64,000 bases of DNA from an uncultured delta proteobacterium (GTDB lineage Bacteria; Myxococcota_A; Polyangia; Polyangiales; Polyangiaceae). Under the pieces are notes generated by a model, which did no database searches, was not told where the DNA came from, and worked only from the letters and a program-made list of their open reading frames with translations. The DNA is taken from assembly GCA_963716725.1 (NCBI GenBank), contig CAVQUB010000012.1, positions 32,001 through 96,000 of the forward strand, written 5' to 3'. The first letter of the stretch is position 1, and each line of letters starts with the position of its first letter. Shown piece by piece: positions 5,235 to 62,083 of the stretch. The position numbers were made by a program, and so were the translations under genes.

Positions 5235-5410
5235 TGTAGTTTCCCACGCTCTTCCCCCGCCCGAATCCCGGGCATTTTCGTGATGCCCTCGGGGTGGTTT
5301 CCCGGAGTGCGGTGGTCGAGTGGGCGTGGCGAGGTGGTGGCAGAAAGGGAGCGGCCCGACGGAGACGTGGATCTCCGCCGGGCCTTGTGGACCGTCGCCG
5401 GGCGCTGGGC

Positions 5411-6208
5411 TCAGGTGACTTCGGCCATGGCGGACTGGATGTGCTCGGTCGTGACGGTCCTGCTCTTGGTGAGCGCGGCGGCCATGAGCGCGTGGTGAGC
5501 GAGCAGGTTCACCTTCCGGGGCAGGCCGTTCGACGCCTGGAAGATCGCCTCCTGGGTTGCGGGCTCGAAGAGTTCGAGCTCGGTTCCGGCGAGTCGGAGC
5601 AGGTGCGTGAGGTACGGGCCGAGCTCGTCACGGGCAAGACCCGGGACGTGAGCGCGCACGACGACGCGCTGCGAGAGCGCCTCGTGCACCGCCATGCCGA
5701 GGCGGCGGCGCAGTTCCGGGTGTCCGACGAGGACCAGGCAGAGGCGGTTGTCGGAGTCCATCGCGTAGTTGGTGAGCAGGCGCAGGTCCTCGAGCACGTC
5801 GCTCCTGAGGTGATGAGCTTCGTCCACGATCAGGATCGGTTTCTGCCGGGCCTCGCTGCAGAGCCGCGTCACCTCGGTCCGGATCTGCCGGAACAGTGCG
5901 GCGCGGTTGCGCTCGGTGGGTAGGCCGATCTCCCAGGCGATGGTCTTGTAGAGATCCATCACGTTGCCGGTGGTGAGCGACACGTAGAGGACGCGGTGCA
6001 GACCCGTGTGGAGACCGGCGACGATCTTCCGACACGCGGTGGTCTTGCCGCTGCCGCTCTCACCGGTGACCACACCGATGCCGCGCAAGTCGAGGAGATG
6101 GGCGAGCCGGGCGTCGAGTTCTCGGAGCGCACCGGAGGCGAAGAGCTCGTCGGGCTCGATGTTTTTGGCGAAGGGGTGGCGGGTGAGGCCGAAGTGCTTG
6201 CGGTACAT
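5411..6208 (-). CDS. ExeA-family AAA+ ATPase (transposition helper)
   Basis: MYRKHFGLTRHPF; Walker A GESGSGKT; Walker B LIVDEAH. Confidence 0.9.
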   Translation of the reverse strand: MYRKHFGLTRHPFAKNIEPDELFASGALRELDARLAHLLDLRGIGVVTGESGSGKTTACRKIVAGLHTGLHRVLYVSLTTGNVMDLYKTIAWEIGLPTERNRAALFRQIRTEVTRLCSEARQKPILIVDEAHHLRSDVLEDLRLLTNYAMDSDNRLCLVLVGHPELRRRLGMAVHEALSQRVVVRAHVPGLARDELGPYLTHLLRLAGTELELFEPATQEAIFQASNGLPRKVNLLAHHALMAAALTKSRTVTTEHIQSAMAEVT

Positions 6209-7653
6209 CAGAGGAGGTCCCCCTCGTCGTCGCCAGCGCCGCCCTGCTGGTTGTCCCCGACATCGAAGTCGAAGTCGCTCAAGCGCATGCCGGGGGGCGG
6301 CTCGTCCACGGGCTGAGATGGATGCAGGGCCTTCGTCGTGTGATCGCGTCGGACGAAACAGTTGGCGTAGACGTCGACACGGCGAGCGATCTGGATCTGC
6401 TTTCCGCGATGCCAGACCTGGACGGCACGTGTCTCTCGCGGACGCGCCGGATCGAAGCGAAGGACGACGGTCTCGCCGACGAGCATCGCGTCCACTTCGT
6501 AGGCCACGCTGTCGAGCGACACGGTGCGGTCGGCCTGCACACGGCGCTTCTGCTCGAAGAGAAACAGATCGGCGAGGTCGCTCGACGACTGGCGCACCTC
6601 GTCTGAGCGCATCGCCCAGCGATCCGCGGGCGTCTCACCGTCGAGTCCGCGGTGGGGACTCCGATGATACTCACCCTCGACCCACGCCCAGAGACGGCGG
6701 TTGAGTGCTTCGAGACTCCGCCTGTCCTCGGGCTGGAGCGTCGGCAGGAGCTGAAGACGCACGGTCCGAAACCACCGCTCCATCTTTCCTTTTCCCTGGG
6801 GCGTGTAGGGACGCGCGTGGATCAAGGTGATGCCGAGCTTCGCGCACACGAGCGCCAGGTGCTGTGCTTTGAAGGCGGCACCGTTGTCGACGTAAAGCCG
6901 CTTGGGGATCCCGCGGCGGCAGATCCCTTGCTCGAGCACGCTGAGAAGGGTCGCGGCGTTCTCGCTGAGCGCGAAGGCCGCATACGGCACCATCCGTGTC
7001 GCGTCGTCGATGACGGCGAGCAGGTACGTCTTCCGCTGCCGCCCGGACACGGCGACGGCGGGGCCGTGCATCACGTCGCTCATCCACAGTTCGCCCGCCT
7101 TCTCGAAGGCGAAGCGTCGGCGGTCCTTCGCCGTCGGCTCGCCCTGCTTCTTCTGCATGAGTCCGGCCCGAGACAAGATCCGGTGCACCGTCGATGGCGC
7201 AAGCGTGACCCCCTCCGGGATCTTCGCGAAGCGCGTCACGTGCGCGATGACGAGTCCGACGCTGAAGTCCGCGTGCTGCTCTTTCGTCTCGCAGAGCAGA
7301 TCCGCGATCTCCCGGGGAATGGCGCGAGCCGAGCCCTCGTCCCGTCGGATCTTCGGGACAAGGGCGTCGAAGCCGCCGCGTCGGTAGTCCGCAAGCCATC
7401 CGCGGATCGTTTCGGCCTGGACCTTCCGCCGGAGCGTTCCGGGGATCTCCCAGTCCTTCTCCGCCTTCTCGCGCAGCTTCGCGTACATGCCGCGCGCACC
7501 GCGCTCGAGGTGGAGCAGATCTGCGATCACGCCATAACGGAACAGCGCGATCTGCTTTCTGCGCTCGGCGTCAGCGAGCGTGCGTTCGTTTTCGGGGGTC
7601 GGTGTCCTCATCGGAGTTCTCTTTCGGTGTCGGCCCGGGTCCGTCCCGGGCAC
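6208..7653 (-). CDS. DDE transposase/integrase with Mu-like C-terminus (start may be about 7611)
   Basis: WMSDVMHG, IDDATR, YVDNG, KGKMERWF; C-terminal RRVQADRTVSLD. Confidence 0.92.
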   Translation of the reverse strand: MPGTDPGRHRKRTPMRTPTPENERTLADAERRKQIALFRYGVIADLLHLERGARGMYAKLREKAEKDWEIPGTLRRKVQAETIRGWLADYRRGGFDALVPKIRRDEGSARAIPREIADLLCETKEQHADFSVGLVIAHVTRFAKIPEGVTLAPSTVHRILSRAGLMQKKQGEPTAKDRRRFAFEKAGELWMSDVMHGPAVAVSGRQRKTYLLAVIDDATRMVPYAAFALSENAATLLSVLEQGICRRGIPKRLYVDNGAAFKAQHLALVCAKLGITLIHARPYTPQGKGKMERWFRTVRLQLLPTLQPEDRRSLEALNRRLWAWVEGEYHRSPHRGLDGETPADRWAMRSDEVRQSSSDLADLFLFEQKRRVQADRTVSLDSVAYEVDAMLVGETVVLRFDPARPRETRAVQVWHRGKQIQIARRVDVYANCFVRRDHTTKALHPSQPVDEPPPGMRLSDFDFDVGDNQQGGAGDDEGDLL

Positions 7654-7662
7654 ACCAACCCG

Positions 7663-8340
7663 CTATCGGTCCCGCCGAGGAGGGTCCGGCCCCGTTTCGT
7701 GTGGGGTCGGCTCTCGCGATGCTTGCCGCGCTCGCCCTCGCGCCCGCAGTCCGACCGGCGCTGGCATGGCGGCCAGGTGAATGGCCGCGGCCGACCGCAG
7801 CGCCACGAGCGCATCCGACACCCCGAGTCGTTGCCGCACCGCGCCAAGCGTCGCCGGGCAGCCCGTGAGCGCCGGCACCAGCGTCACTGCCGCCACGAGC
7901 GCCGCGTGGACAGCAACACGCCGCCGCCGGAGCCACCGCAGCGCGCTTGGAAGCGTCACCGCGTCCGCTGCGATCGCGGGGCGCACCTTCTCGGCGACCG
8001 CCTCCAGACTCTTGGCGCCCTCGGCCACCTCGACGGCCCGCTCGACCTCCTCGAGCGTGCCCGACAGTCGGGAAGCCAGAAAATCAGGCAAAAGGCTGAT
8101 AGTCACCCGAGCCCGCGGGCACCAGAACCGGGCGACGCGGACGCCGACGGGGCGGACCCGACCGTAGCTCCCGTGCCCCGCGAGACCGCAGCCGCCCTCC
8201 GGGTGCAGCGGGCACCGCTCCAAACTTGCGGCCCGCCACGCCTGCTCGGTAACGTACCGCTCGCTGGTGAGGGTCGTCTCGTAACGGACAACCAATCCTT
8301 CGCTGGCCGGGTCCGTGCGGGTGCTACCGCGACGGACCAA
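7663..8340 (-). CDS. Transposon ORF1, Cys/His-containing hypothetical protein
   Basis: CPLHPEGGC..HGSYGR..RFWC; lies inside the transposon ends, upstream of the transposase. Confidence 0.7.
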   Translation of the reverse strand: MVRRGSTRTDPASEGLVVRYETTLTSERYVTEQAWRAASLERCPLHPEGGCGLAGHGSYGRVRPVGVRVARFWCPRARVTISLLPDFLASRLSGTLEEVERAVEVAEGAKSLEAVAEKVRPAIAADAVTLPSALRWLRRRRVAVHAALVAAVTLVPALTGCPATLGAVRQRLGVSDALVALRSAAAIHLAAMPAPVGLRARGRARQASREPTPHETGPDPPRRDR

Positions 8341-8492
8341 CCTTCTCCGGCGATCAGCTTTCCGCGGATCAGCCTCTCAGGAAAAAAGAACGGCGAAGCT
8401 CTCCGGAGTCCGAACCCGGCTCACCCGAAACAACGAGCGCCCAGACCGACACCACGACCGCGGGGGATCACGACGGAGGGTGACGGCCTACA

Positions 8493-8640
8493 CCGGTGTT
8501 ACCGCAAGGGGTTCAGCCACGCGAAGGCCTGCGGGATGATCACCGAGGGTGGGGGGACTCACTTCGACCCCGAGGTGACCCATGCATTCGAGGCCTGCCA
8601 GGTCCGCTTTGGGCGCGAGCGGCAGGCCATGCTGGGTTGA
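8493..8640 (+). pseudogene. HD-GYP gene, 3' remainder after the transposon
   Basis: RCYRKGFSHAKACGMITEGGGTHFDPEV, a typical HD-GYP tail. Confidence 0.85.
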
Positions 8641-18870: not shown

Positions 18871-19377
18871 ATGCTGATGCGGGATGCGATGCGCCGTCCG
18901 GGCCGACCGACCCGCGCTGGCGCGCAGTTCGCGGGTAGGCCGAAGCGGATCTGCACCACCGGCTCATCGCGCTTCCGTACATCGACATGCCGCGGAGCGA
19001 AGCGCACGTGCGAGGAGTGCGCGACCATGCACGATCGCTTCGACGACTCAATCGCAGCCGCAGAAAACTGGGTTTCGGTCGCGCCATCAGCGTCGTCTGA
19101 CTGCGCCGCGCTATCGTCGCCCCGCTGTTCTCGCCCGCCCACTCCGGATATATTTCAGCGCTCACGAGCCGCCGCACATCCATTTGAGTACCAAGGTCAC
19201 GAGGCCTTCGTGGCATCGCAGCAGGTGAGGTGCTCGAGGGGTCGCCTGCCAAGGCGGCAATCTCAGTTGCCGAAAGTCTGCGCTCCTCATCGCCCAGCAT
19301 TTCGTCGCGTAAACGCCTCACTTTACGCAAAGGCTCCGCCGGCGGCTGGGTCTGGTCCCGTGGCGTGGGTTCTTCCT

Positions 19378-19475
19378 CCCTCACCGCACCCGACGCGCTT
19401 CGTGACGATCCTTGAAAGTGCCCGGAGGGGCATCCCCGGCGGGGGGAACCCAAGTCCCCGGTCCCCGATCGTCGC
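19378..19475 (-). repeat. Copy of the extreme 3' end of the L,D-transpeptidase gene carrying a 54-bp nested insertion
   Basis: Matches 38944-38987 except for the insertion at 19392-19445. Confidence 0.9.
19392..19445 (+). repeat. Two nested 27-bp micro-elements (type A at 19407-19433 inside a type B)
   Basis: GACGCGCTTCGTGAC[GATCCTTGAAAGTGCCCGGAGGGGCAT]CCCCGGCGGGGG; absent from the homologous sites at 35409 and 38946. Confidence 0.88.
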
Positions 19476-19583
19476 GTGGCGCTTTGCTCAGACCGGAGCG
19501 CGCGTGGCGCATGCCCGCGCGCACGCGGCGGGGCGCATGCCCGCGCGCACGCGGCGGGGCGCACGCGGCGGGGGGAGACGCGC
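19476..19583 (+). repeat. Dispersed GC-rich repeat with internal tandem expansion (other copy 34634-34702)
   Basis: GTGGCGCTTTGCTCAGACCGGAGCGCG...GGGGAGACGCGC in both places. Confidence 0.85.
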
Positions 19584-19673: not shown

Positions 19674-19919
19674 ATGCACGCCCTGAAAGCCCAGGTGAAG
19701 AACGGCAGGCTTGTTCTCGATGAACCAACGGACCTGCCGGAGGGCGAGATCGTCGAGTTGATCGCCGTCGATGAGGTACTGGCGAAGGGCGGGGACTACC
19801 TCGATGACGAGGAACGGGAACGGCTCCATGCGGCCCTGGAGCGCTCGATCGAGCAGGCCCAGGATGGCAAACTGATCGACGCCAGCGTCGTGATGGCCAA
19901 GCTCCGAGCGATCCCTTGA
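19674..19919 (+). CDS. Putative antitoxin
   Basis: MHALKAQVKNGRLVLDEPTDLPEG..LDDEERERLHAAL; overlaps a RelE/ParE-like ORF. Confidence 0.75.
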   Translation: MHALKAQVKNGRLVLDEPTDLPEGEIVELIAVDEVLAKGGDYLDDEERERLHAALERSIEQAQDGKLIDASVVMAKLRAIP

Positions 19920-20090
19920 AGCTGACCGTTCGGTTTACTCCGGAGGCCGAGAGTCGGGCGATTGCCGTTGCGACCTGGTGGAGGGTGAACGGCATCGTCC
20001 GTGACCTGTTCGACCGAGAGCTTGCGGAGGCTCAGGAGAAAGTGATCGCCGAGCCGCTCCTCGGCGTGGTCTACCGGACGGCAAGGGGAG
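19916..20090 (+). pseudogene. RelE/ParE-like toxin, 3' truncated
   Basis: MKLTVRFTPEAE..WWRVN..LFDRELAEA..PLLG, then repeat-derived sequence. Confidence 0.7.
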
Positions 20091-20395
20091 CCCCGGTCCC
20101 CGATCGTCGCCGCTGCGCACCGAGCGCCACGTATCGGGCACGCGCAGCTCGGCTTCGCCCGAACGGGGAAGACGGGCTGCGCCGAGAGAGCGCGGGCGCC
20201 TTGGGTGGCGATCGCCACCTGACTTCGCCACTTCGCCGCCTGTCGGCGAACGAATCCTCCGGGACTCTGCGGCTCTGCCGCGCGGCACGGGACTCGCTCA
20301 TGCACGCATGGCGTGGGCCACGCCGCACACGCCTTCCCCCAGCCTGAGCGCTCGCGCTTTCGCCATCGACCGGAGAGCACCGTGCTCTACCAGAC
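20091..20395 (+). mobile_element. Deleted copy of the LDT tail + IS91-like 5' region
   Basis: 20091-20120 matches the LDT tail; 20146-20395 aligns to 22160-22485. Confidence 0.85.
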
Positions 20396-21840: not shown

Positions 21841-21871
21841 CGCACCCGTCCGTAGCCAAAACGAATGGGGT

Positions 21872-22066
21872 TTACCGCACCCGCACCCAAGTCCCCGGTC
21901 CCCGATCGTCGCCGCTGCGCACGCCATGCCAGGTCTCGGGCACCTGGGGCTCGGTCCACGAGAACAGCCACTTGGCATCCCGGATCGAGAGGTTCACGCA
22001 GCCGCCGCTCTTGGGCTCGCCAAAGCGATCGTGCCAGTAGGCCGCATGCAACGCGAAGGGCATGTG
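21872..22066 (-). repeat. Diverged copy of the L,D-transpeptidase 3' end
   Basis: Encodes [32 protein letters not shown], with mostly synonymous differences from 38946-39140. Confidence 0.92.
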
Positions 22067-22098
22067 TCTTCCTGCCCCAACTCGCCGGTGCTCCTCGC

Positions 22099-22125
22099 AC
22101 CCCTTCGAGTATCGCGAAGCGCGTC
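22099..22125 (-). repeat. 27-bp micro-element, type B
   Basis: GACGCGCTTCGCGATACTCGAAGGGGT. Confidence 0.75.
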
Positions 22126-22371
22126 GCTTCGCGCTCGTGCGCGCCTGCGGTCTTCCCCTAAGCTCGGGCTTCGCCCGAGCGGGGAAGACGGGTCGCTCCG
22201 AGCCAGGTGTGTCGTCGCTGAGCTTACGCGCGGCTCGTGGTGCTCGGCCGGCGCAGTGGTCGGGCTGCGCCGGGAGAGAGCGCGCGCCCCTGGGTGGCGA
22301 TCGCCACCTGACTTCGCCACTTCGCCGCCTGCGGGCGAACGAGTTCTCAGGGAAATTGCGGCTCTGCTGCG

Positions 22372-22386
22372 TGGCACGGGACTCGC
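22372..22386 (+). promoter_or_regulatory. Possible sigma-54 -24/-12 motif upstream of the IS91-like transposase
   Basis: TGGCAC-GGGAC-TCGC (GG-N10-GC). Confidence 0.35.
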
Positions 22387-22401
22387 TCATGCATCCGTGG
22401 C

Positions 22402-24111
22402 GTGGGCCATCCCGCACACGCGCTCGCACCGTCCGAGCGATCGCGTTCCCGCCATCGACCGGAGAGCACCGTGCTCTACCAGACGGTGGCGGAGCACTGG
22501 CCGGCGTTCTTGGAGCGGGCCGAAGAGCACGGCGGCTTGCCGCGCTTCACCCCGTCGGGTGTCACGCAGCGCGTCGTGGTGAAGGAGTTCGAGGAGTATT
22601 TAGGGTGTGGACAGCTCGAGCGAGGTTGTCTGCACCTCGTGTGTCGTGACTGCGGTTACTCCGACCTCGTGGCGTTTTCGTGCAAAAAGCGCGGCTTTTG
22701 CCCATCTTGTGTCGGGCGACGCATGGCGGACATGGCCGTGCATTTGGAGGAGCGAGTTCTGCCCCGTGTGCGGATCCGCCATTGGATTTGCTCCTTGCCC
22801 TGGGGGCTGCGTGCGCTGCTCGGCTACGACCCTTGGAAGTCCCAGAAGTGGGACGACCGGAAGCTCTGCGCAGAAGTGGTCAGCGCGTTCATGGCGGAGG
22901 TGGACCGCTCGCTGCGCAGGCGCGCGAAGCGCGAGCTCGGAATCGCAAGCGTCACGAGAGCATACACCGGCGGCGTGGTCGCGGTGCAGAGGACGGACGG
23001 TGCTTTGAGACTGAACGTCCACGGCCACGCTCTCGTGCTCGACCGCGTGTACGTGCATCAGGACGACGACCCGAGCGCTCCGCTCGAGTTCCGCGAGCTC
23101 GACACGCCATCGCACGCCGACATCGCGGAGGTCGCGTCACGCACGGCGACACGCATCGAGAAGATCCTGCGCGCGCACGGACGGAGCCTCGACCCCGAGC
23201 TCGGGGACGACACGCCGCCCGAGCTCGCCCTCGACGAGCCCGGCCTCGCAGCTTGCTACTCCGCCGCGGCGCAGGGCATCCCCCGTCGGGGACTTCCAGG
23301 GGTCGTCTCCGTGACCGGCGAACGAGCAGGAAAACCACCGCTCCGTCTCATCGCGTCGCCCGAATCGCCCGCGCGCCCGCGCGCCGCCGACGCCACCGAC
23401 GAGCCCATCGCCGAGGTGCGCGGCATCAACATTCACGCCGCCCAAGCCATCGACGGCCGCGATCGCCGTCGCGTGGAGCGAATCTGTAAGTACGACCCTT
23501 GGAAGTCCCCGACGGGGGACATCACGCGCCCACCTGTCGCGCAGGACCGCCTCGAGCGCCGCGCGGATGGCAAACTCGAGCTCAGCTTCAAGCGTGCTTG
23601 GCGTGACGACCCTTGGAAGTCCCCGACGGGGGGCGGCACACGCGCGCTGGTCTTCGAGCCCGCCGACCTCATCCCGCGCCTCGTCGCCGCGGTGCCGCCG
23701 CCTCGCTGGCATCTCCTCAGGTACTTCGGCGTGCTCTCCCTCTTCAGGGACTTCCAAGGGTCGTCGAGCCACTCCTCGCGCCGGCGTCTCGTCGTGCCCA
23801 CACCGCCGGCGGACGCGACCGCGAACAAGCCGCCGCCAGCCCGCGGCGATCAGCTCGAGCTACTTGGCGAGAAGGACGACGCGCCGGTGCCGCGCAAACG
23901 ATGGGCATGGATGCTGGCCCACGTGTTCCAAGCTGACATGGACCATTGTCCCCGCTGCTCCGGTCCGATGCGCTGGGCCGAGGTCGCCACGACGCGTGCT
24001 GCCATCACCCGCCTGCTCGCCGAGCACGGTCTCGGGGCGAGAGCGCCGCCGCGTCAACACGTGAACCTTCGGGTGCCCGAGCAGCTCGTGTTGGGGTTCG
24101 GGGAAGGGTGA
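22402..24111 (+). CDS. IS91/ISCR-family rolling-circle HUH transposase with six in-frame 9-aa insertions
   Basis: Zn motifs CRDCG..FSCKKRGFCPSC; HUH LNVHGH; ICKY..ITRPP; RYFGV. Confidence 0.93.
   Translation: MGHPAHALAPSERSRSRHRPESTVLYQTVAEHWPAFLERAEEHGGLPRFTPSGVTQRVVVKEFEEYLGCGQLERGCLHLVCRDCGYSDLVAFSCKKRGFCPSCVGRRMADMAVHLEERVLPRVRIRHWICSLPWGLRALLGYDPWKSQKWDDRKLCAEVVSAFMAEVDRSLRRRAKRELGIASVTRAYTGGVVAVQRTDGALRLNVHGHALVLDRVYVHQDDDPSAPLEFRELDTPSHADIAEVASRTATRIEKILRAHGRSLDPELGDDTPPELALDEPGLAACYSAAAQGIPRRGLPGVVSVTGERAGKPPLRLIASPESPARPRAADATDEPIAEVRGINIHAAQAIDGRDRRRVERICKYDPWKSPTGDITRPPVAQDRLERRADGKLELSFKRAWRDDPWKSPTGGGTRALVFEPADLIPRLVAAVPPPRWHLLRYFGVLSLFRDFQGSSSHSSRRRLVVPTPPADATANKPPPARGDQLELLGEKDDAPVPRKRWAWMLAHVFQADMDHCPRCSGPMRWAEVATTRAAITRLLAEHGLGARAPPRQHVNLRVPEQLVLGFGEG
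22549..22575 (-). repeat. 27-bp micro-element, type B (in-frame TPSGVTQRV)
   Basis: GACGCGCTGCGTGACACCCGACGGGGT; removal gives LPRFVVKEF. Confidence 0.85.
22828..22854 (+). repeat. 27-bp micro-element, type A (DPWKSQKWD)
   Basis: GACCCTTGGAA-GTCCCA-GAAG-TGGGAC. Confidence 0.9.
23278..23304 (-). repeat. 27-bp micro-element, type A
   Basis: GACCCCTGGAA-GTCCCC-GACG-GGGGAT on the minus strand. Confidence 0.9.
23494..23520 (+). repeat. 27-bp micro-element, type A (DPWKSPTGD)
   Basis: GACCCTTGGAA-GTCCCC-GACG-GGGGAC between KY and ITRPP. Confidence 0.92.
23608..23634 (+). repeat. 27-bp micro-element, type A (DPWKSPTGG)
   Basis: GACCCTTGGAA-GTCCCC-GACG-GGGGGC; removal gives WRDGTRAL. Confidence 0.92.
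23736..23762 (-). repeat. 27-bp micro-element, type A
   Basis: GACCCTTGGAA-GTCCCT-GAAG-AGGGAG; empty site in the paralog near 35735. Confidence 0.9.
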
Positions 24112-24258
24112 GGCTTCGTCGCGGGACTCGCCAAGGCGGTGCTCCGTGCGCGGTGGCGCGTTCTGCCTCGCTGTGACGCTCAGCAGCGGCAACCAACTGT
24201 TCAGCCAGCCACCCCGACCTGCCTCTCGACCTCCGACCGCCACGCGCGTACCCTGAGC

Positions 24259-24294
24259 ATCGGTGGGTTTTGGCAGTTCGTTCCTCCTACGCGC
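24259..24294 (+). mobile_element. Putative oriIS-like right end of the IS91 element
   Basis: CGGTGGGTTTTGGCAGTTCGTT..CCTACGCGC shared with 36136-36170; homology stops here. Confidence 0.6.
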
Positions 24295-24469
24295 GCCTCC
24301 CGCCTCGGCGACGGACCCGCCCGACGCATCCCAGCAGGGGGTTTCGAAACCGCCACCGCGCCGCGAGCCGAAGAGTCCTGCATCGGCTTCCGCGGCGAGC
24401 TCCCTGGGCATTCACGCCGACGGCCTGCTCGACCGCAAATGAGAGGTGCTAGCGTCTGGGGCAGCTCCG

Positions 24470-34569: not shown

Positions 34570-34852
34570 TCTTCCTGCCCCCACTCGCCTCGCTGCGCTC
34601 GGCGGTCTCCCCCAACGCCGGTGCGCGCGGGCGGTGGCGCTTTGCTCAGACCGGAGCGCGGGTGGCGCATGCCCCCGCGCACGCGGCGGGGGGAGACGCG
34701 CGTTTGGGCGTGTCGGTGGCCGTGCTGGGGGGAGCGGAGTCGACGGTGTTGCCGGCGCGCACACTCCCGTGTCGTGACTCGATACCACCGCGGCCCTTTC
34801 CCTGGCGTTTGGGTGACCTACCGAATGGCTCAACGCATGCAAGTGGCGCTGC

Positions 34853-35391: not shown

Positions 35392-35603
35392 GCGCGAGCC
35401 CGCCACCCTCACCGCACCCGAACCCAAGTCCCCGGTCCCCGATCGTCGCCGCTGCGCACGCTGTGCCACGCATCGGGCACCTGGGGCTCCGTCCACGAAA
35501 ACAGCCACTTCGCGTCGCGGACCGAGAGGTTGACGCAGCCGCCGCTCTTCGGCTCACCGAAGCGATCGTGCCAGTAGGCCGCATGCAAGGCGAAGGGCAT
35601 GTG
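35392..35603 (-). repeat. Apparently exact 212-bp copy of the LDT 3' end and flank (38929-39140)
   Basis: Direct comparison by eye found no mismatch. Confidence 0.92.
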
Positions 35604-36170
35604 TCTTCCTGCCCCAACTCGCCGCCGCTGCACTCCTTCGAGTATCGCGAAGCGCGTCGCGGCGTCGGTCTTCCCCAAACTCGGGCTTTGCCCGAGCGGG
35701 GAAGACGGGCGTGGGTTCCGAGGTACTTCGGCGTCCTTTCGAGGCACTCGTCGCGCCGCCGACTCGTCGTGCCTGCTCCCCCGCCCGACGCGACCGCGCA
35801 CAAGCCCCCGCCCGCCCGCGGCGATCAGCTTGAGCTGCTCGGCGAGACAGACGACGCACCCGCTCCGCGAGCCCCTTGGGGATCCCCGAAGGGGGACAAA
35901 CGACGGGCCTGGCTCCTGGCGCATGTGTTGACCACGCGAAGGTGCGCCTGCCCGAGCAGTTGGTGCTGGGGTTCGGGAAGGAGTGAGGCAGGCGCCAAGC
36001 GCCTCGCCGAGCGCGAACGTGTGTCCTCTGCAGCGCGCGACGCCGAAAATCCTGCCGCGCTCTACCTTTGCGGGGCCCCGAGCGGGTTCACGGGCCAGCC
36101 CTCGACCGCGCGCATGCCTGCGCGTACTGTTCGACTCGGTGGGTTTTGGCAGTTCGTTTTCCCTACGCGC
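35604..36170 (+). mobile_element. Internally deleted IS91-like element, with 27-bp elements at 35632-35658 (B) and 35871-35897 (A)
   Basis: Same left flank as 22067; [29 protein letters not shown]; same right end as 24259-24294. Confidence 0.88.
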
Positions 36171-36184
36171 CCGTCGTCCTGAGC

Positions 36185-38677: not shown

Positions 38678-38936
38678 ATGCTTGCCCGTGACCGTCATCA
38701 GCTCCGCCGCCAGCAAACCCCCGCCGAACGCGCCGCCGAGATGCGCGCCGTGCCCACCCGCTCGGAGGCTGCCCTCTGGGCAATGCTCCGCGCTCGAAAA
38801 CTCGGCGCGTCGGTGCGGCGTCAGGTGGTGATCGGCCAGCACGTGGTCGACTTCTTGGTGCCCGCTCGCAAGCTCGTCGTCGAAGTCGACGGCGGGTGCC
38901 ACCGCGACCGCCGCGTGGCGGACGCCCGGCGCGAGC
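38678..38936 (+). pseudogene. DUF559 endonuclease, N-terminal part
   Basis: AEMRAVPTRSEAALWAMLR..RRQVVIG..VDF..LVVEVDGG.H. Confidence 0.8.
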
Positions 38937-38945
38937 CCGCCACCC

Positions 38946-40664
38946 TCACCGCACCCGAACCCAAGTCCCCGGTCCCCGATCGTCGCCGCTGCGCACGCTG
39001 TGCCACGCATCGGGCACCTGGGGCTCCGTCCACGAAAACAGCCACTTCGCGTCGCGGACCGAGAGGTTGACGCAGCCGCCGCTCTTCGGCTCACCGAAGC
39101 GATCGTGCCAGTAGGCCGCATGCAAGGCGAAGGGCATGTGGAAAAACTGCGTGAAGGGGACCTCCGAGAGGTAGTAGCTCTTGCGCTCGGGGTCGGGCGT
39201 CATGGTCGTCGATCGGTGCTTCCACTCGATGCGGAAGGTGCCCGTCGGCGTGGTGAACTTCGCGGGCGCGCCGTTGTCGCGTTTGTAGCCGTTGGCGCCC
39301 GGCGAGATCAGCGTGGCGAAGATCGCGCGATCGCCCTCGTAGGCGACCAACGTGCCCCTGAAGATGCTGATGTCCACCCACTTCTCGCCGGCGGCTAGCG
39401 AGAAGCCTCGGGGCGGACGCTCGTCGATCATCGTGGCGTCGCGCTCGCGGATGAAGCCGCCGTCGGTCGTCTCCAGGTAGCGGACGTTGCGCTCCTTGCG
39501 GTAGCGGCCCGTCAGGCCCATCCAGGACAATCGCGTCCAGCTGCCCGGCGTCTCGCGCATCGCACCCGGCGTGGTGTCCTCACGAAAGCCGGCCAGCGGA
39601 TCGGGGTCGTCCGCGCGTGGTTCGTGAACATCGAGCTCCTCCTCGAAGCTCACCGGGGTCAGATCCGAGGCCGTTGCGATCACGCGGTACTTGGGCTTGT
39701 CGTCGTGCCTCACGAAGGCGAGGGGCAAGCGCACGCGCTCGCCGTCGATCTGCACTCCCACGAAGGGCGAGGGCTCGAGGGGGGCGAGTTTGTCCTTGGG
39801 GGCGACCAGCAGATCGTCGGTCAGGACCCAGCTGCGGCCGTCGACCACGAACTCGTCGGTCCACGCGATGGCCGAGCGAGCGGGGATCCACTTGGCGAAG
39901 GGGCGCGTCTCGTGAGGTGCGCTGGCCAGCGATGCAGGGGAGAGGGCACCGGTGGCGAATACGTTCGGGGGCGCGCCGGTGGCAGCGGCGAGATCGACGT
40001 CCTTCAGCGCCGCGGGAACGCGGACCGGATCGCGACCCTCGCGCTGCGCGGTGCGGAGCTCTTCGAGGCGGGCGAGGTGAGCGTCGAGCTCGAACTCGAC
40101 CCGGCGTTGCTCGTCGGCGGTCGGGATCTTCCGATAGAGCAGCCCCTCGCGCGAGGTGCTCCAGCCCAGGGGCGCCGCGGCATCGAAGTCGCCGTGGTGG
40201 CTGCGCTTGGCGACGATGATCGGGTGCGAGTCCACGTCGAGCGTGGTACTCGGATCGAGACAGACGTAGCCCGCCGGCTCGACCGCGTACCAGCCCTTGC
40301 TGCAGCCATCGGTCCCCTTCGAAGCAGCGTCGCGCAGGGGCACGACCGCGCCGATGTGAAGCTGGCCGATCTCAGGCGAGGTTTGGCGGGGGCTCTGCCG
40401 AACGAAGACGCGGGACGACAGCGCGCCGATGCGCGGCGGTGGCGGCGTTGGCGCGACCTGAGCGGCGGGCGCGACCTGAGCGGCGGGCGCGACCTGAGCG
40501 GCGGGTGCCGGACCGTCGGCGGCGAGTGTCGTGGTGGCTGCGGCGGTGGGCTCGGACTCGGTCGTTGTCGACGCCGCGGGTGACGGAGTGACGGATGACG
40601 GCCGACAGGCCGCGAGCACGAGCGCGAGCGCGGTGCCCAGGACCAGCCGACGTTCCAGAGACAT
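38946..40664 (-). CDS. L,D-transpeptidase lipoprotein
   Basis: LAAC lipobox; [21 protein letters not shown]. Confidence 0.92.
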   Translation of the reverse strand: MSLERRLVLGTALALVLAACRPSSVTPSPAASTTTESEPTAAATTTLAADGPAPAAQVAPAAQVAPAAQVAPTPPPPRIGALSSRVFVRQSPRQTSPEIGQLHIGAVVPLRDAASKGTDGCSKGWYAVEPAGYVCLDPSTTLDVDSHPIIVAKRSHHGDFDAAAPLGWSTSREGLLYRKIPTADEQRRVEFELDAHLARLEELRTAQREGRDPVRVPAALKDVDLAAATGAPPNVFATGALSPASLASAPHETRPFAKWIPARSAIAWTDEFVVDGRSWVLTDDLLVAPKDKLAPLEPSPFVGVQIDGERVRLPLAFVRHDDKPKYRVIATASDLTPVSFEEELDVHEPRADDPDPLAGFREDTTPGAMRETPGSWTRLSWMGLTGRYRKERNVRYLETTDGGFIRERDATMIDERPPRGFSLAAGEKWVDISIFRGTLVAYEGDRAIFATLISPGANGYKRDNGAPAKFTTPTGTFRIEWKHRSTTMTPDPERKSYYLSEVPFTQFFHMPFALHAAYWHDRFGEPKSGGCVNLSVRDAKWLFSWTEPQVPDAWHSVRSGDDRGPGTWVRVR

Positions 40665-40769
40665 GGCGCGAATATCGCGGAGGACCGCTGATCCGGCCCA
40701 GATCCTTGAGACCGAGCTCGATGGGCGGCTCGATCTCGCGCGAATCATCGTGGGGCGAGCAACGGGCGC

Positions 40770-59714: not shown

Positions 59715-62083
59715 ATGGCCTGGGGTGCAAGGTTCGGATCGGGGTGCTTTGGGGGTGTGCTGTCGCTGCTGGTTGGCTTTGCGTTGCTCCCATCGGGGTG
59801 CTCCAGCGAGTCGACGAACAACGTCATTGGCCAGCCGGACGCGGGCCAGCCGGACACGGGCCAGCCGGACACGGGCCAGCCGGACGCGAATGATGCCGGC
59901 TCGGGCACCTGCTCGGACGGCGTGAAGAACGGTTCCGAGGTCGCCGTCGACTGCGGTGGCGGCTGCCTGTGTAGCACCGGACAGCCGTGCCAGCTTGCCG
60001 GCGACTGTGCGAGCAGCGTGTGCGCCGGCGGCAAATGCCAGCCGCCGAACTGCACCGACGGCTACAAGAACGGCGACGAAAGCGACATCGACTGCGGTGG
60101 CAACGCATGCCCCGCGTGCGCCGCTCTGAAGGCGTGCGCGGTCTCCGCCGACTGCCTGAGCAAGGTGTGCAAGGGCGGCGTGTGCCAGGCCCCGACCTGC
60201 AGCGACCTCGCCCAGAACGCGGACGAGACCGACGTCGACTGCGGCGGGTCCACCTGCGGCGCGTGCGCCGATGGCAAGGCGTGCGTCGCGCCGTCCGATT
60301 GCGTGAACGGGCTGTGCGCCAGCGGCAAGTGCGTTCCGGCAAGTTGCCTGGACGGCGTGCTCAACGGCGACGAAACCGACAAGGACTGCGGCGGAAGCTG
60401 TGCCAGCTGCAACGACGGTCAGATCTGTGGCGCCGGCGCTGACTGCAAGAGCCTGGTGTGCTCTTCCGGCACTTGTCAGATCGCGAGCTGCAACGACACT
60501 GCGAAGAACGCCCTGGAAACGGACGTGGACTGCGGCGGGCCCATATGCCCCAAGTGCGCCGCCCCCCTGGCCTGCGCGCAGGCCAGCGACTGCCAGAGCG
60601 CTATTTGCTTGGGCAACAAGTGCCAGGCTGCAAGCTGCACCGACAGCGTGAAGAACGGCGCAGAGAGCGACGTCGATTGCGGTGGCAACCTGTGCTCGGG
60701 GTGTCTGAACGGCCAGACCTGCTCCGCCGGAGCGGATTGCAAAAGCGGCGGCTGCGCCAGCGCCATCTCACAGTGTGGTCCCTGGGCCAAGCGATTCGGC
60801 GATACGACCGAGGAATACGCGCACACGGTCGCCGTGGACTCGCAAGGCAACATCATTCTGGTTGGCGAGTTCTGGGGCAGTGTGAGCTTCGGTGGCGCGA
60901 CGTTCACCGCCCTGGGGACCCACCCCGATGCCTTCGTCGTCAAGCTCTCACCGAGCGGCGCCCATCTGTGGTCCAAGCAGTTCGGGGGCACGGGGATCGA
61001 CATTGCCTACGGGGTGGCGGTGGACGCCAGCGACGACATCGTGGTGACGGGCGGCGCGGACAGCACCAACTTCGGCGGCGGGCTGCTCACCAGCAAGGGA
61101 AGCGTAGACGCCTTCATCGTCAAGCTGAAGGGCAGCGACGGCTCGCACATCTGGTCCACCCTGGTCGGCGGACTCATCGCCGAATACGCCCAGAGCGTAG
61201 CGGTGGTCCCGCCCACCGGCGACGTGGTGATCGTGGGTCGGGCATATTCTGCGTCGTACTCGCTCGGCGGCGCCACCTTCACTGGGAAGGGGGGCATGGA
61301 CGCCTTTGTCGCCAAGTACAAGGGCAGTGACGGCTCGCACCTCTGGTCGAAGGGCTTTGGCGACACCGGCGAGGAGCGCTTGGGCCGGGTGGCGGTGGAT
61401 TCCGCCGGAAATGCCTTCGTTGCCGGCTCCTTCACCACGTCCATTGACCTGGGAGGCGGGTCCCTGCCGACCGCCGGCAGCCTGGACATGATCGTCGGCA
61501 AGCTCGCTTCCGCGAACGGCGCCCACCTGTGGTCGAAAGCGTTCGGCGGGACGCTCGGCGATGCGTTGTCTGGCATTGCGGTGGACCCCGCCGGCGATCC
61601 CGTGGTTACCGGGTCCATGGGCACTGCCATCACTCTCGGCGGCGCCGTGCTCCCTTACGTCGCACTGTCCGACGTCGTGATCGCCAAGTTCAACGGCTCG
61701 AATGGTTCCCACTTGTGGTCGGTCGCCGCCGGCGGGGGAGCTTCGACCTGGGCAACTCCGTTGCCTTTTTCGGCAGCGATCCAATTGTTGCGGGCAGCTA
61801 TCTCTCCGGCGCTCTCAACTTTGGCGGCGGCAACTTGCCGGCCGGCAGCGGCGACGCGCTGTTCATGGTCCGTCTCACCGGCTCTACCGGCGCGCACGTG
61901 GCTTCCGCAGGTTATGCGCCGACCACGGGCAAGCTGCTCCAACGAGGCTTGGCCATCAGCCCCGTCTCTAACAGCGTCGTGATCAGCGGCTCTGTCACCG
62001 GCACTGCCAGCATCGGCACGTCGCTGCTGACCGCCGTCGGAGGGAGTGACGCCTTCGTGGCAAGCTTTGGTCCGCTGCCCTGA
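59715..62083 (+). CDS. Large surface lipoprotein (DxDCGG Cys repeats + beta-propeller), frameshift near 61735
   Basis: PSGC lipobox; NGDETDVDCGG repeats; DAFVVK/HLWSK repeats; last blades continue in the frame ending at 62083. Confidence 0.85.

Follow-up and report, generated by a model that had tools for sequence, protein, structure and literature searches.

The locus and its empty counterparts

The window, the whole 64 000 nt stretch of DNA analysed here, has a G+C content of 67% and lies on contig C12 of a 7.9 Mb, 35-contig assembly (G000). It includes an intact gene for a 600 aa L,D-transpeptidase and several copies of the 3' end of that gene, all of which fall within the 64 kb. One copy, merely a 44 bp fragment in a mosaic of repeat fragments, is interrupted by 54 bp. 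The features that bear on this insert are:

19378..19391, minus strand, left flank: fragment copy of the L,D-transpeptidase gene end, with its last codons and stop; same sequence at 35406-35419 and 38943-38956
19392..19445, plus strand, insert: composite of unit A within unit B (B[A]), a 54-column gap against the empty copies; identical 54-mer at C5:31906-31959 of G000; covered by contigs from runs X1 and X5
19446..19475, minus strand, right flank: continuation of the gene-end fragment over 30 bp, matching 35420-35449 and 38957-38986 at 100% identity
21855..22066, minus strand, third transpeptidase gene-end copy, 85% identical and empty (repeat families D1, D13)
35392..35603, minus strand, 212 bp duplicate of the transpeptidase gene end, 100% identical (repeat family D1), with the empty site between 35419 and 35420
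38946..40748, minus strand, intact L,D-transpeptidase gene (ORF, 600 aa; Pfam YkuD, E = 1.4e-15), with the empty site between 38956 and 38957, five codons ahead of the stop

A further short copy of the gene end is at 20081-20152. When 19370-19480 was aligned with 35399-35455 and 38936-38992, a single gap of exactly 54 columns was found, corresponding to 19392-19445 and bordered by identical bases, 14 on the left (CCCTCACCGCACCC) and 30 on the right. This agrees with the original prediction that this copy has 54 bp more than the sites at 35409 and 38946. Read on the minus strand, the shared flanking sequence encodes the final residues and stop of the 600 aa YkuD ORF. Both of the sites that had been called empty do lack the 54 bp, but they are the 3' end of the L,D-transpeptidase gene and its 100% identical 212 bp duplicate rather than independent neutral sites. 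The dinucleotide GA is found at 19392-19393 and again at 19446-19447, which allows the insert to slide by up to 2 nt. As GA is present on both sides, the earlier statement that there is no target duplication should read none longer than 2 nt; the junctions are compatible with a duplication of 1-2 nt.

The filled state is reproduced by public contigs from two studies. One 476 nt contig from run X1 covers 19060-19535 with zero differences, and a 318 nt contig from run X5, which belongs to another study, covers 19126-19443, ending 2 nt before the right junction. As X1 may be the assembly's own sample, X5 constitutes the independent support. Other contigs of X5 and X6 carry the empty paralogues, and none of the public contigs searched joins 19391 to 19446. 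The insert region has no syntenic counterpart in the six congeners compared. A search of relatives for orthologous empty sites found none for this region or for C1:160000-179900; both are IS-rich and without synteny.

That the 54 bp are ancestral and were precisely deleted elsewhere, or are an assembly artefact, is very improbable. The direction of change is not given by a present/absent comparison alone, and short direct repeats (GA) border the block. However, the empty state is the intact end of the YkuD gene, the block recurs in unrelated flanks, and the filled junctions are reproduced without differences in independent public contigs.

Several other repeats surround the insert. A 58 bp repeat directly after the gene-end fragment is found at 19476-19560 and 34634-34691, and the copy at 19502-19559 has been lengthened by a 26 bp tandem duplication (GCGCATGCCCGCGCGCACGCGGCGGG-like). 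Two small overlapping ORFs at 19674-20095 look by eye like an antitoxin-toxin pair, and neither matches Pfam; the second is truncated at 20081 by a diverged transpeptidase gene-end fragment. Further away, a repeat of approximately 3.26 kb at 5235-8494 (C12:37235-40494) has nine or more copies in the genome that match at 100% identity, and is presumably a very recently active insertion sequence. Five to seven 147 bp tandem repeats at 59900-60700 encode a cysteine-rich module in a large ORF (D3, D4, D6).

Structure of units A and B

The insert is made up of two 27 nt units, one inside the other:

19392..19405, plus strand, 5' arm of unit B (GACGCGCTTCGTGA) and small hairpin CGCG-CTT-CGTG (solo-B consensus; DNA fold)
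19406..19432, plus strand, unit A (CGATCCTTGAAAGT GCCC GGAG GGGC A), hairpin at 19419-19432 (empty solo-B comparisons b39 and b92; A[A] nests; covariation)
19433..19445, plus strand, 3' part of unit B: T and hairpin CCCC-GGCG-GGGG (DNA fold; solo-B catalogue)

Unit A consists of a 12 nt arm, CGAYCCTKGRAA, followed by a hairpin with a 6 bp stem and a 4 nt loop. Unit B contains two small hairpins and has the solo consensus GACGCGCTTCGYGAT followed by NCCC-GNNG-GGGN; in the composite, unit A sits between these two hairpins. The predicted nest of a 27 bp A within a 27 bp B was therefore correct in kind, but the inner unit should be shifted left from 19407-19433 by 1-2 nt. When solo B units and other A insertions are compared, it falls at 19405/6-19431/2, with a 1 nt A ambiguity that makes 19405-19431 equally good. 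The base following A is T in 10 of the 11 composites (B consensus GAT) and mostly C after solo A, and position 27 of the A unit as first drawn is unpaired in 11 of 37 distinct copies.

The compensatory change that had been noted in the inner stem is real. Among 43 copies of A (37 distinct) from the window, relatives and distant metagenome-assembled genomes (MAGs), the pair at positions 14-25 varies with pairing kept (C:G in 28, A:U in five and G:C in one of the 37 distinct copies). Overall, 94.1% of stem cells are paired, both sides have changed in two of the six pairs, and the covariation score was reached by 0/500 shuffles; as the sequences are related, this is supportive and does not amount to a formal probability. 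Stem variants in which pairing is kept include GTCCCC/GGGGAC, GTACCC/GGGTAC, GTGCCC/GGGCAC, GTCCCT/AGGGAC and GTCCCA/TGGGAC. As single-stranded DNA the composite is predicted to fold into three small hairpins, with a fold energy that is ordinary for its base composition (z = -0.1). No Rfam or other known RNA family was matched at E values up to 1, bar one weak match to an unrelated sRNA.

Both units are discrete and dispersed in the genome

The core pattern of the inner unit occurs six times in the window, against 0.01 expected from shuffles. Genome-wide, the pattern combined with a stem filter recovered 98 A units against four in the reversed genome, and 129 matches were reached with iterative excision, including 10 A[A] nests of 54 bp. 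Solo B numbers 37 against four in the reversed-genome control, and 11 composites hold a single A, in 11/11 cases at one fixed position of B. The catalogues of A and B depend on regular expressions and thresholds of our own making. The genome-wide search for nests that had been proposed thus gave 11 B[A] and 10 A[A] blocks.

Unit A also forms head-to-tail arrays of 2-9 copies with a 27 bp period, some of them inside unit B. As these have no spacers, a CRISPR array was rejected. In one multi-copy element the internal array differs in length between sites (four copies at C2:193797, two at C3:37335, seven at C5:605042, two at C6:47678, six at C21:51032 and five at C33:25635), making it a variable-number tandem repeat built of micro-element A. 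Many copies of A and B are in IS-rich stretches, and normal coding sequence is short of them. Only 16/129 A, 10/37 B and 2/11 B[A] exceeded a codon log-odds threshold that 62% of random sites pass.

To obtain empty sites, each element block was removed in silico and the joined flanks were searched against the genome. For approximately 40 of 118 blocks, a gap-free paralogous site that lacks exactly 27 or 54 bp was found elsewhere (43 filled/empty pairs were listed, three of which are self-overlap artefacts). Exact absence was seen for solo A, solo B, A[A] and B[A] alike, and the proposal that the micro-elements insert as discrete units is supported by these pairs. The register of A is [A]CGAY…GGGN[A], with one ambiguous A, and the base before it is A in 14/14 informative junctions, both nest kinds included, when read by eye. 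The base before B is C in 7/7 junctions, usually with one ambiguous G, and for B the register is as originally drawn. The redundancy at the junctions amounts to 0-2 nt (maximum 5 nt) and matches the GAC with which the unit itself ends; the single A or C beside the junctions is too short a target to be diagnostic. With this redundancy and no terminal inverted repeats, A and B are not miniature inverted-repeat transposable elements (MITEs).

The composite appears to have arrived whole

The nest had been taken to imply two successive insertions at this site, and this was not borne out. The same 54-mer (54/54 identical) is found at C5:31906-31959, with unrelated flanks, where it falls in the region of another IS91-like ORF that encodes the C terminus; an empty paralogue of this second site is on C35. 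Six of the 21 blocks of 54 bp (11 B[A] and 10 A[A]) have paralogues that lack all 54 bp, and a paralogue with the outer unit alone was found for 0/21. Likewise, B alone is present in 0/5 of the transpeptidase gene-end copies. All five occurrences of the TTGAAAGT variant of A were inside B. The identical 54-mer, the six empty paralogues and the missing intermediates together suggest that composites move en bloc, an argument drawn from absences among few paralogues, with which two events in quick succession would also be compatible.

These observations argue against a B that landed first and an A that then entered that B at the same site, and two such local events are unlikely, even though A evidently does enter B. 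There are 37 solo B units, some near-identical to the outer unit, and b39 and b92 are otherwise matching solo B units that lack precisely A. Moreover, as several variants of A are found inside B, either A entered B repeatedly at the same position or the units exchange sequence. The nesting itself must have arisen from A entering B, at an earlier time and place. Of the eight A units in the congener G002, five belong to B[A] composites at loci other than this one. The corresponding syntenic sites of G000 lack these composites together with the larger intergenic inserts that contain them, which affords no precise 54 bp comparison.

Two successive events are thus probably the wrong reading of this locus, and on the sequence comparisons the insertion of a ready-made composite, once, is the more economical one. 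We consider it likely that 19392-19445 is such a composite of two tiny non-coding hairpin units, inserted as non-autonomous mobile DNA. It would have entered the dead 44 bp gene-end fragment recently and in one step, as neither the composite nor its flanks differ at any base from the nearest copies (100% identity).

An IS91-like element has collected A and B units

Downstream of the insert, an IS91-family transposase gene contains or adjoins seven of the units:

22099..22125 (C12:54099-54125), minus strand, solo B upstream of the IS91-like gene (repeat D15)
22402..24111, plus strand, IS91-family transposase ORF (Pfam Zn_Tnp_IS91 and Y2_Tnp) with five A units
22549..22575 (C12:54549-54575), minus strand, solo B, missing from paralogous IS copies (empty paralogue at C13:114119, 95% identical; b71)
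22828-22854, plus strand, A unit
23278-23304, minus strand, A unit
23494-23520, plus strand, A unit
23608-23634, plus strand, A unit
23736-23762, minus strand, A unit

Paralogues that lack each of these five A units exactly were found (b72-b76). In both orientations, each A adds nine codons to the ORF, and IS paralogues that are approximately 73% identical contain zero A units. IS91-like zones make up 0.38% of the genome and hold 20 of 119 A units, all in one IS lineage. Many of these are therefore inherited copies, and the enrichment, strong as it is, was set aside as an independent signal.

The same A insertions at the same IS positions were found in contigs of MAGs labelled Polyangiaceae and of one labelled Phycisphaerales, indicating that the IS can carry A between genomes. 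A 1257 bp IS91-like stretch with three A units (L099 and L112) has the same three contexts in Polyangiaceae- and Phycisphaerales-labelled contigs, which reflects either horizontal transfer or a binning error.

Compared with 21855-24300, the segment at 35392-36175 is a short IS91-like derivative without approximately 1.6 kb of the interior. What it shares with the longer element is the gene-end fragment, a B unit, the 3' portion of the transposase gene and the repeat at the end (D1, D15, D18, D12, D11). Pieces of the neighbouring transpeptidase gene seem to travel with the IS91-like element; in one-ended rolling-circle transposition, pieces of neighbouring genes are expected to travel along.

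Distribution of A and B in other genomes

Exact A patterns number 41 in G000 and 8, 4, 2, 1, 0 and 0 in six congeners, and there are none in 24 genomes from other genera of the family and order. A 26 nt pattern for A matched in 7 of 401 sampled genomes of the phylum, three of which hold 37, 25 and 8 copies, a patchy, burst-like distribution. Unit B is nearly private to G000, which has 26 exact copies; one congener has three, and two singletons turned up in a set of 201 genomes.

A scan of one genome per species returned at least 115 loci. Among the matches listed, 57 pass a loose arm-plus-stem filter, a few of which are still chance-like. The filtered loci are in MAGs labelled Myxococcales, Kofleriaceae, Polyangiaceae, 'Deltaproteobacteria', Fibrobacterota/Chitinivibrionales, Gammaproteobacteria, Bacillota and Natronospirales. 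A is multi-copy in MAGs labelled from at least five phyla, a count that goes by record title only, as MAG labels and binning can err. Five distant MAGs contain 10-26 exact copies of A each, and the reversed pattern gave 0 matches. The one Leptolyngbyaceae match is without the arm and chance-like. Phage or plasmid carriers of the units were sought in viral_contigs and PLSDB, with 0 matches in each.

In the distant MAGs, A is found in spacers beside ordinary genes (ftsA/ftsZ, a GTPase, an aminotransferase), often in the loop of another hairpin, and self-nested up to three deep. In a Kofleriaceae-labelled MAG (L150; G035 C1:131200-134329), A is self-nested up to three deep directly after CCTTG, and the nesting point is two bases upstream of that in the window's genome. 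At L156-L159 and L166-L168, in G031 and G032 (Chitinivibrionales/Fibrobacterota labels), the GTACCC variant of A occupies a loop, either that of another conserved hairpin (GGGGGA…CTTCCCCC) or that of a long palindrome between ftsA and ftsZ.

Conservation of the A arm and of stem pairing across MAGs labelled from several phyla, together with the position of A in spacers beside ordinary genes and the depletion of both units from coding sequence (A 16/129 and B 10/37 above a score that 62% of random sites pass), would fit motifs with a function for the host (for example a hairpin that ends or stabilises transcripts, or a site bound by a protein), held by selection, with spread as a by-product. 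We regard this as quite improbable. There is no Rfam match, many copies lie in transposase ORFs or IS-rich junk in both orientations, and self-nests, variable arrays and burst-like spread typify selfish repeats; host function would also leave the arrival of the units at new sites unexplained.

Target preference and the search for a mobilising enzyme

Of 21 independent filled/empty events, six, all of them A or A[A], have a perfect stem of at least 5 bp that begins with the base directly following the A junction, against a random rate of 1.4% per position. Similarly, a stem directly follows A at 6 of 38 independent A loci, compared with 1.8% of random AC sites (p = 6e-5). The two sets share three loci, and the offset was picked after viewing the data. 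Because the preference first came to light in data that overlap with the set used to test it, the p-values are optimistic. In both nest kinds A is one or two bases ahead of a hairpin. The preference covers just 16-30% or so of A events, and there is no such hairpin at the junction of 19391 with 19446. Junction bases are no more unpaired than background, and insertion into unpaired positions was accordingly discarded as a preference. Orientation relative to GC skew is unbiased (19:15 for A and 10:13 for B), leaving lagging-strand targeting without support.

The genome has two matches to the Y1_Tnp profile. The clear Y1 gene, a RAYT-like gene of approximately 135 aa at C5:165400-166300 (L001), has inverted copies of two other hairpin motifs on both sides and seems to be a REP-type system of its own, separate from A and B. 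With different hairpins at this gene and Y1_Tnp in one of the five distant (incomplete) A-rich MAGs, a RAYT/Y1 enzyme was rejected as the mobiliser. IS91-type Y2 transposases are present in 7/7 genomes of the genus and 4/5 distant A-rich MAGs, against 0/14 control genomes. They were also set aside, as they occur in congeners without A, one A-rich MAG is without them and the IS ends are unlike A or B; a Y2 (IS91-type) transposase is a weak lead on the mobiliser. Neither the Y1 and Y2 profiles nor comparison of ends revealed a mobilising gene for A/B in the genome or in the A-rich MAGs.

The junctions of A^C type, the lack of a clear duplication and the tendency of A to land directly on the 5' side of another hairpin suggest an enzymatic step on a single strand. 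A trans-acting enzyme that recognises structure probably moves A and B in the form of single-stranded hairpins. By analogy with the IS200/IS605 and RAYT enzymes, an HUH-type step may be involved, but this is doubtful.

Comparison with known small repeats

By description, the closest kinds are the small dispersed repeats (SDR) of cyanobacteria, followed by REPs that lack a transposase. SDR1-8 of Nostoc/Anabaena, reportedly described by Elhai et al. in 2008, are said to be approximately 20-27 nt, dispersed and in variable tandem copies, nested, and with no known transposase. SDR5 inserts precisely between nt 3 and 4 of HIP1, according to PMC4390886, and cyanobacterial SDRs are cited in passages of PMC2884548 and PMC3116915. 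A and B resemble SDRs in their length of 27 nt and their dispersal (98 A units and 37 solo B units over 7.9 Mb, with four of each in the controls), in the entry of A at a fixed site of another short repeat (11/11 in B), in nesting and in exact 27/54 bp presence or absence. SDRs are described only in cyanobacteria, whereas the GC-rich A and B come from a genome that is probably myxobacterial, and A is multi-copy in MAGs labelled Fibrobacterota, Gammaproteobacteria, Bacillota and others. Unlike SDRs, the composites appear to move en bloc and A prefers the 5' foot of a hairpin.

Passages of PMC3733652 distinguish a GTAG-tagged, RAYT-associated superfamily of REPs from a CGTC-tagged one found in five phyla without a dedicated transposase, with an 8-9 bp stem, a 4-5 nt loop and a short tail beside the tag, and place some REPs within small palindromes. 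REPINs (PMC3116915) are inverted doublets of REPs and replicate as such. Like REPs, A and B are short stem-loops with compensated stem changes, mostly outside genes and sometimes inside. They differ from GTAG REPs in having no GTAG at either end of the consensus, and from RAYT-associated REPs in that the RAYT-like gene of G000 is flanked by other hairpins. Whereas REPINs are dimers joined head-to-head or tail-to-tail, the composites are built as direct nests and head-to-tail arrays. The stems of 6 bp (A) and 4 bp (B) and the unpaired arm of 12-15 nt set them apart from CGTC REPs; the complement of B does end in CGTC, yet 11 nt from its hairpin, while in a CGTC REP the tag adjoins the 8-9 bp stem.

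IS200/IS605 elements and their miniature derivatives (PATEs) move as single strands, by 'peel and paste', through a Y1 HUH transposase. Shared with these miniatures are the hairpins and seamless presence or absence. Insertion beside a short fixed sequence without duplication would be a further similarity, but a single A or C at junctions with 0-2 ambiguous bases is too short to be diagnostic. However, IS200/IS605 elements have distinct left and right hairpin ends and a matching TnpA, whereas A has one hairpin per 27 nt unit, no autonomous element with A or B ends was found, Y1_Tnp is missing in 4/5 distant A-rich MAGs and there is no strand bias.

Palindromic repeats tolerated in frame within ORFs are known from the Rickettsia palindromic elements (PMC3733652), and the five nine-codon A units in the IS91-type transposase ORF are comparable. 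Unlike those elements, which are mostly described inside genes, most A and B units are outside normal coding sequence. The Rickettsia elements are also several times longer. When the main texts of papers were searched for the A and B sequence strings, only unrelated plant primers were returned; for small repeats in myxobacteria and nested in-frame hairpins, PMC3733652 was the sole paper of use, and such repeats in myxobacteria themselves had no relevant match.

Significance

How elements of 20-30 nt move has been a puzzle since the cyanobacterial SDRs and the CGTC REPs that lack a transposase. G000 is a clean natural experiment on this question, with dozens of filled/empty pairs in a single genome, composites that seem to be mobile and a measurable preference for the 5' foot of hairpins. 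The arm and hairpin of A, conserved across phyla, narrow down what the machinery must recognise. The units add 9 or 18 codons to ORFs, break assemblies and mimic indel polymorphism, and annotation and strain typing of GC-rich environmental genomes should therefore allow for them.

The cross-phylum reach of A and its hairpin-foot preference are the parts most worth following. Tentatively, A may represent a cross-phylum class of 27 nt gene-less mobile modules that home to the foot or loop of hairpins and build new mobile composites by nesting. By record labels such a class would span Myxococcota, Fibrobacterota, Gammaproteobacteria, Bacillota and Natronospirales, tied to no single transposase family as far as seen. 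If so, the drive would come from either an undiscovered hairpin-specific enzyme or ubiquitous host replication and repair machinery, the IS91-type element with its seven collected units would be one vehicle between genomes, and A modules would be among the smallest mobile elements known.
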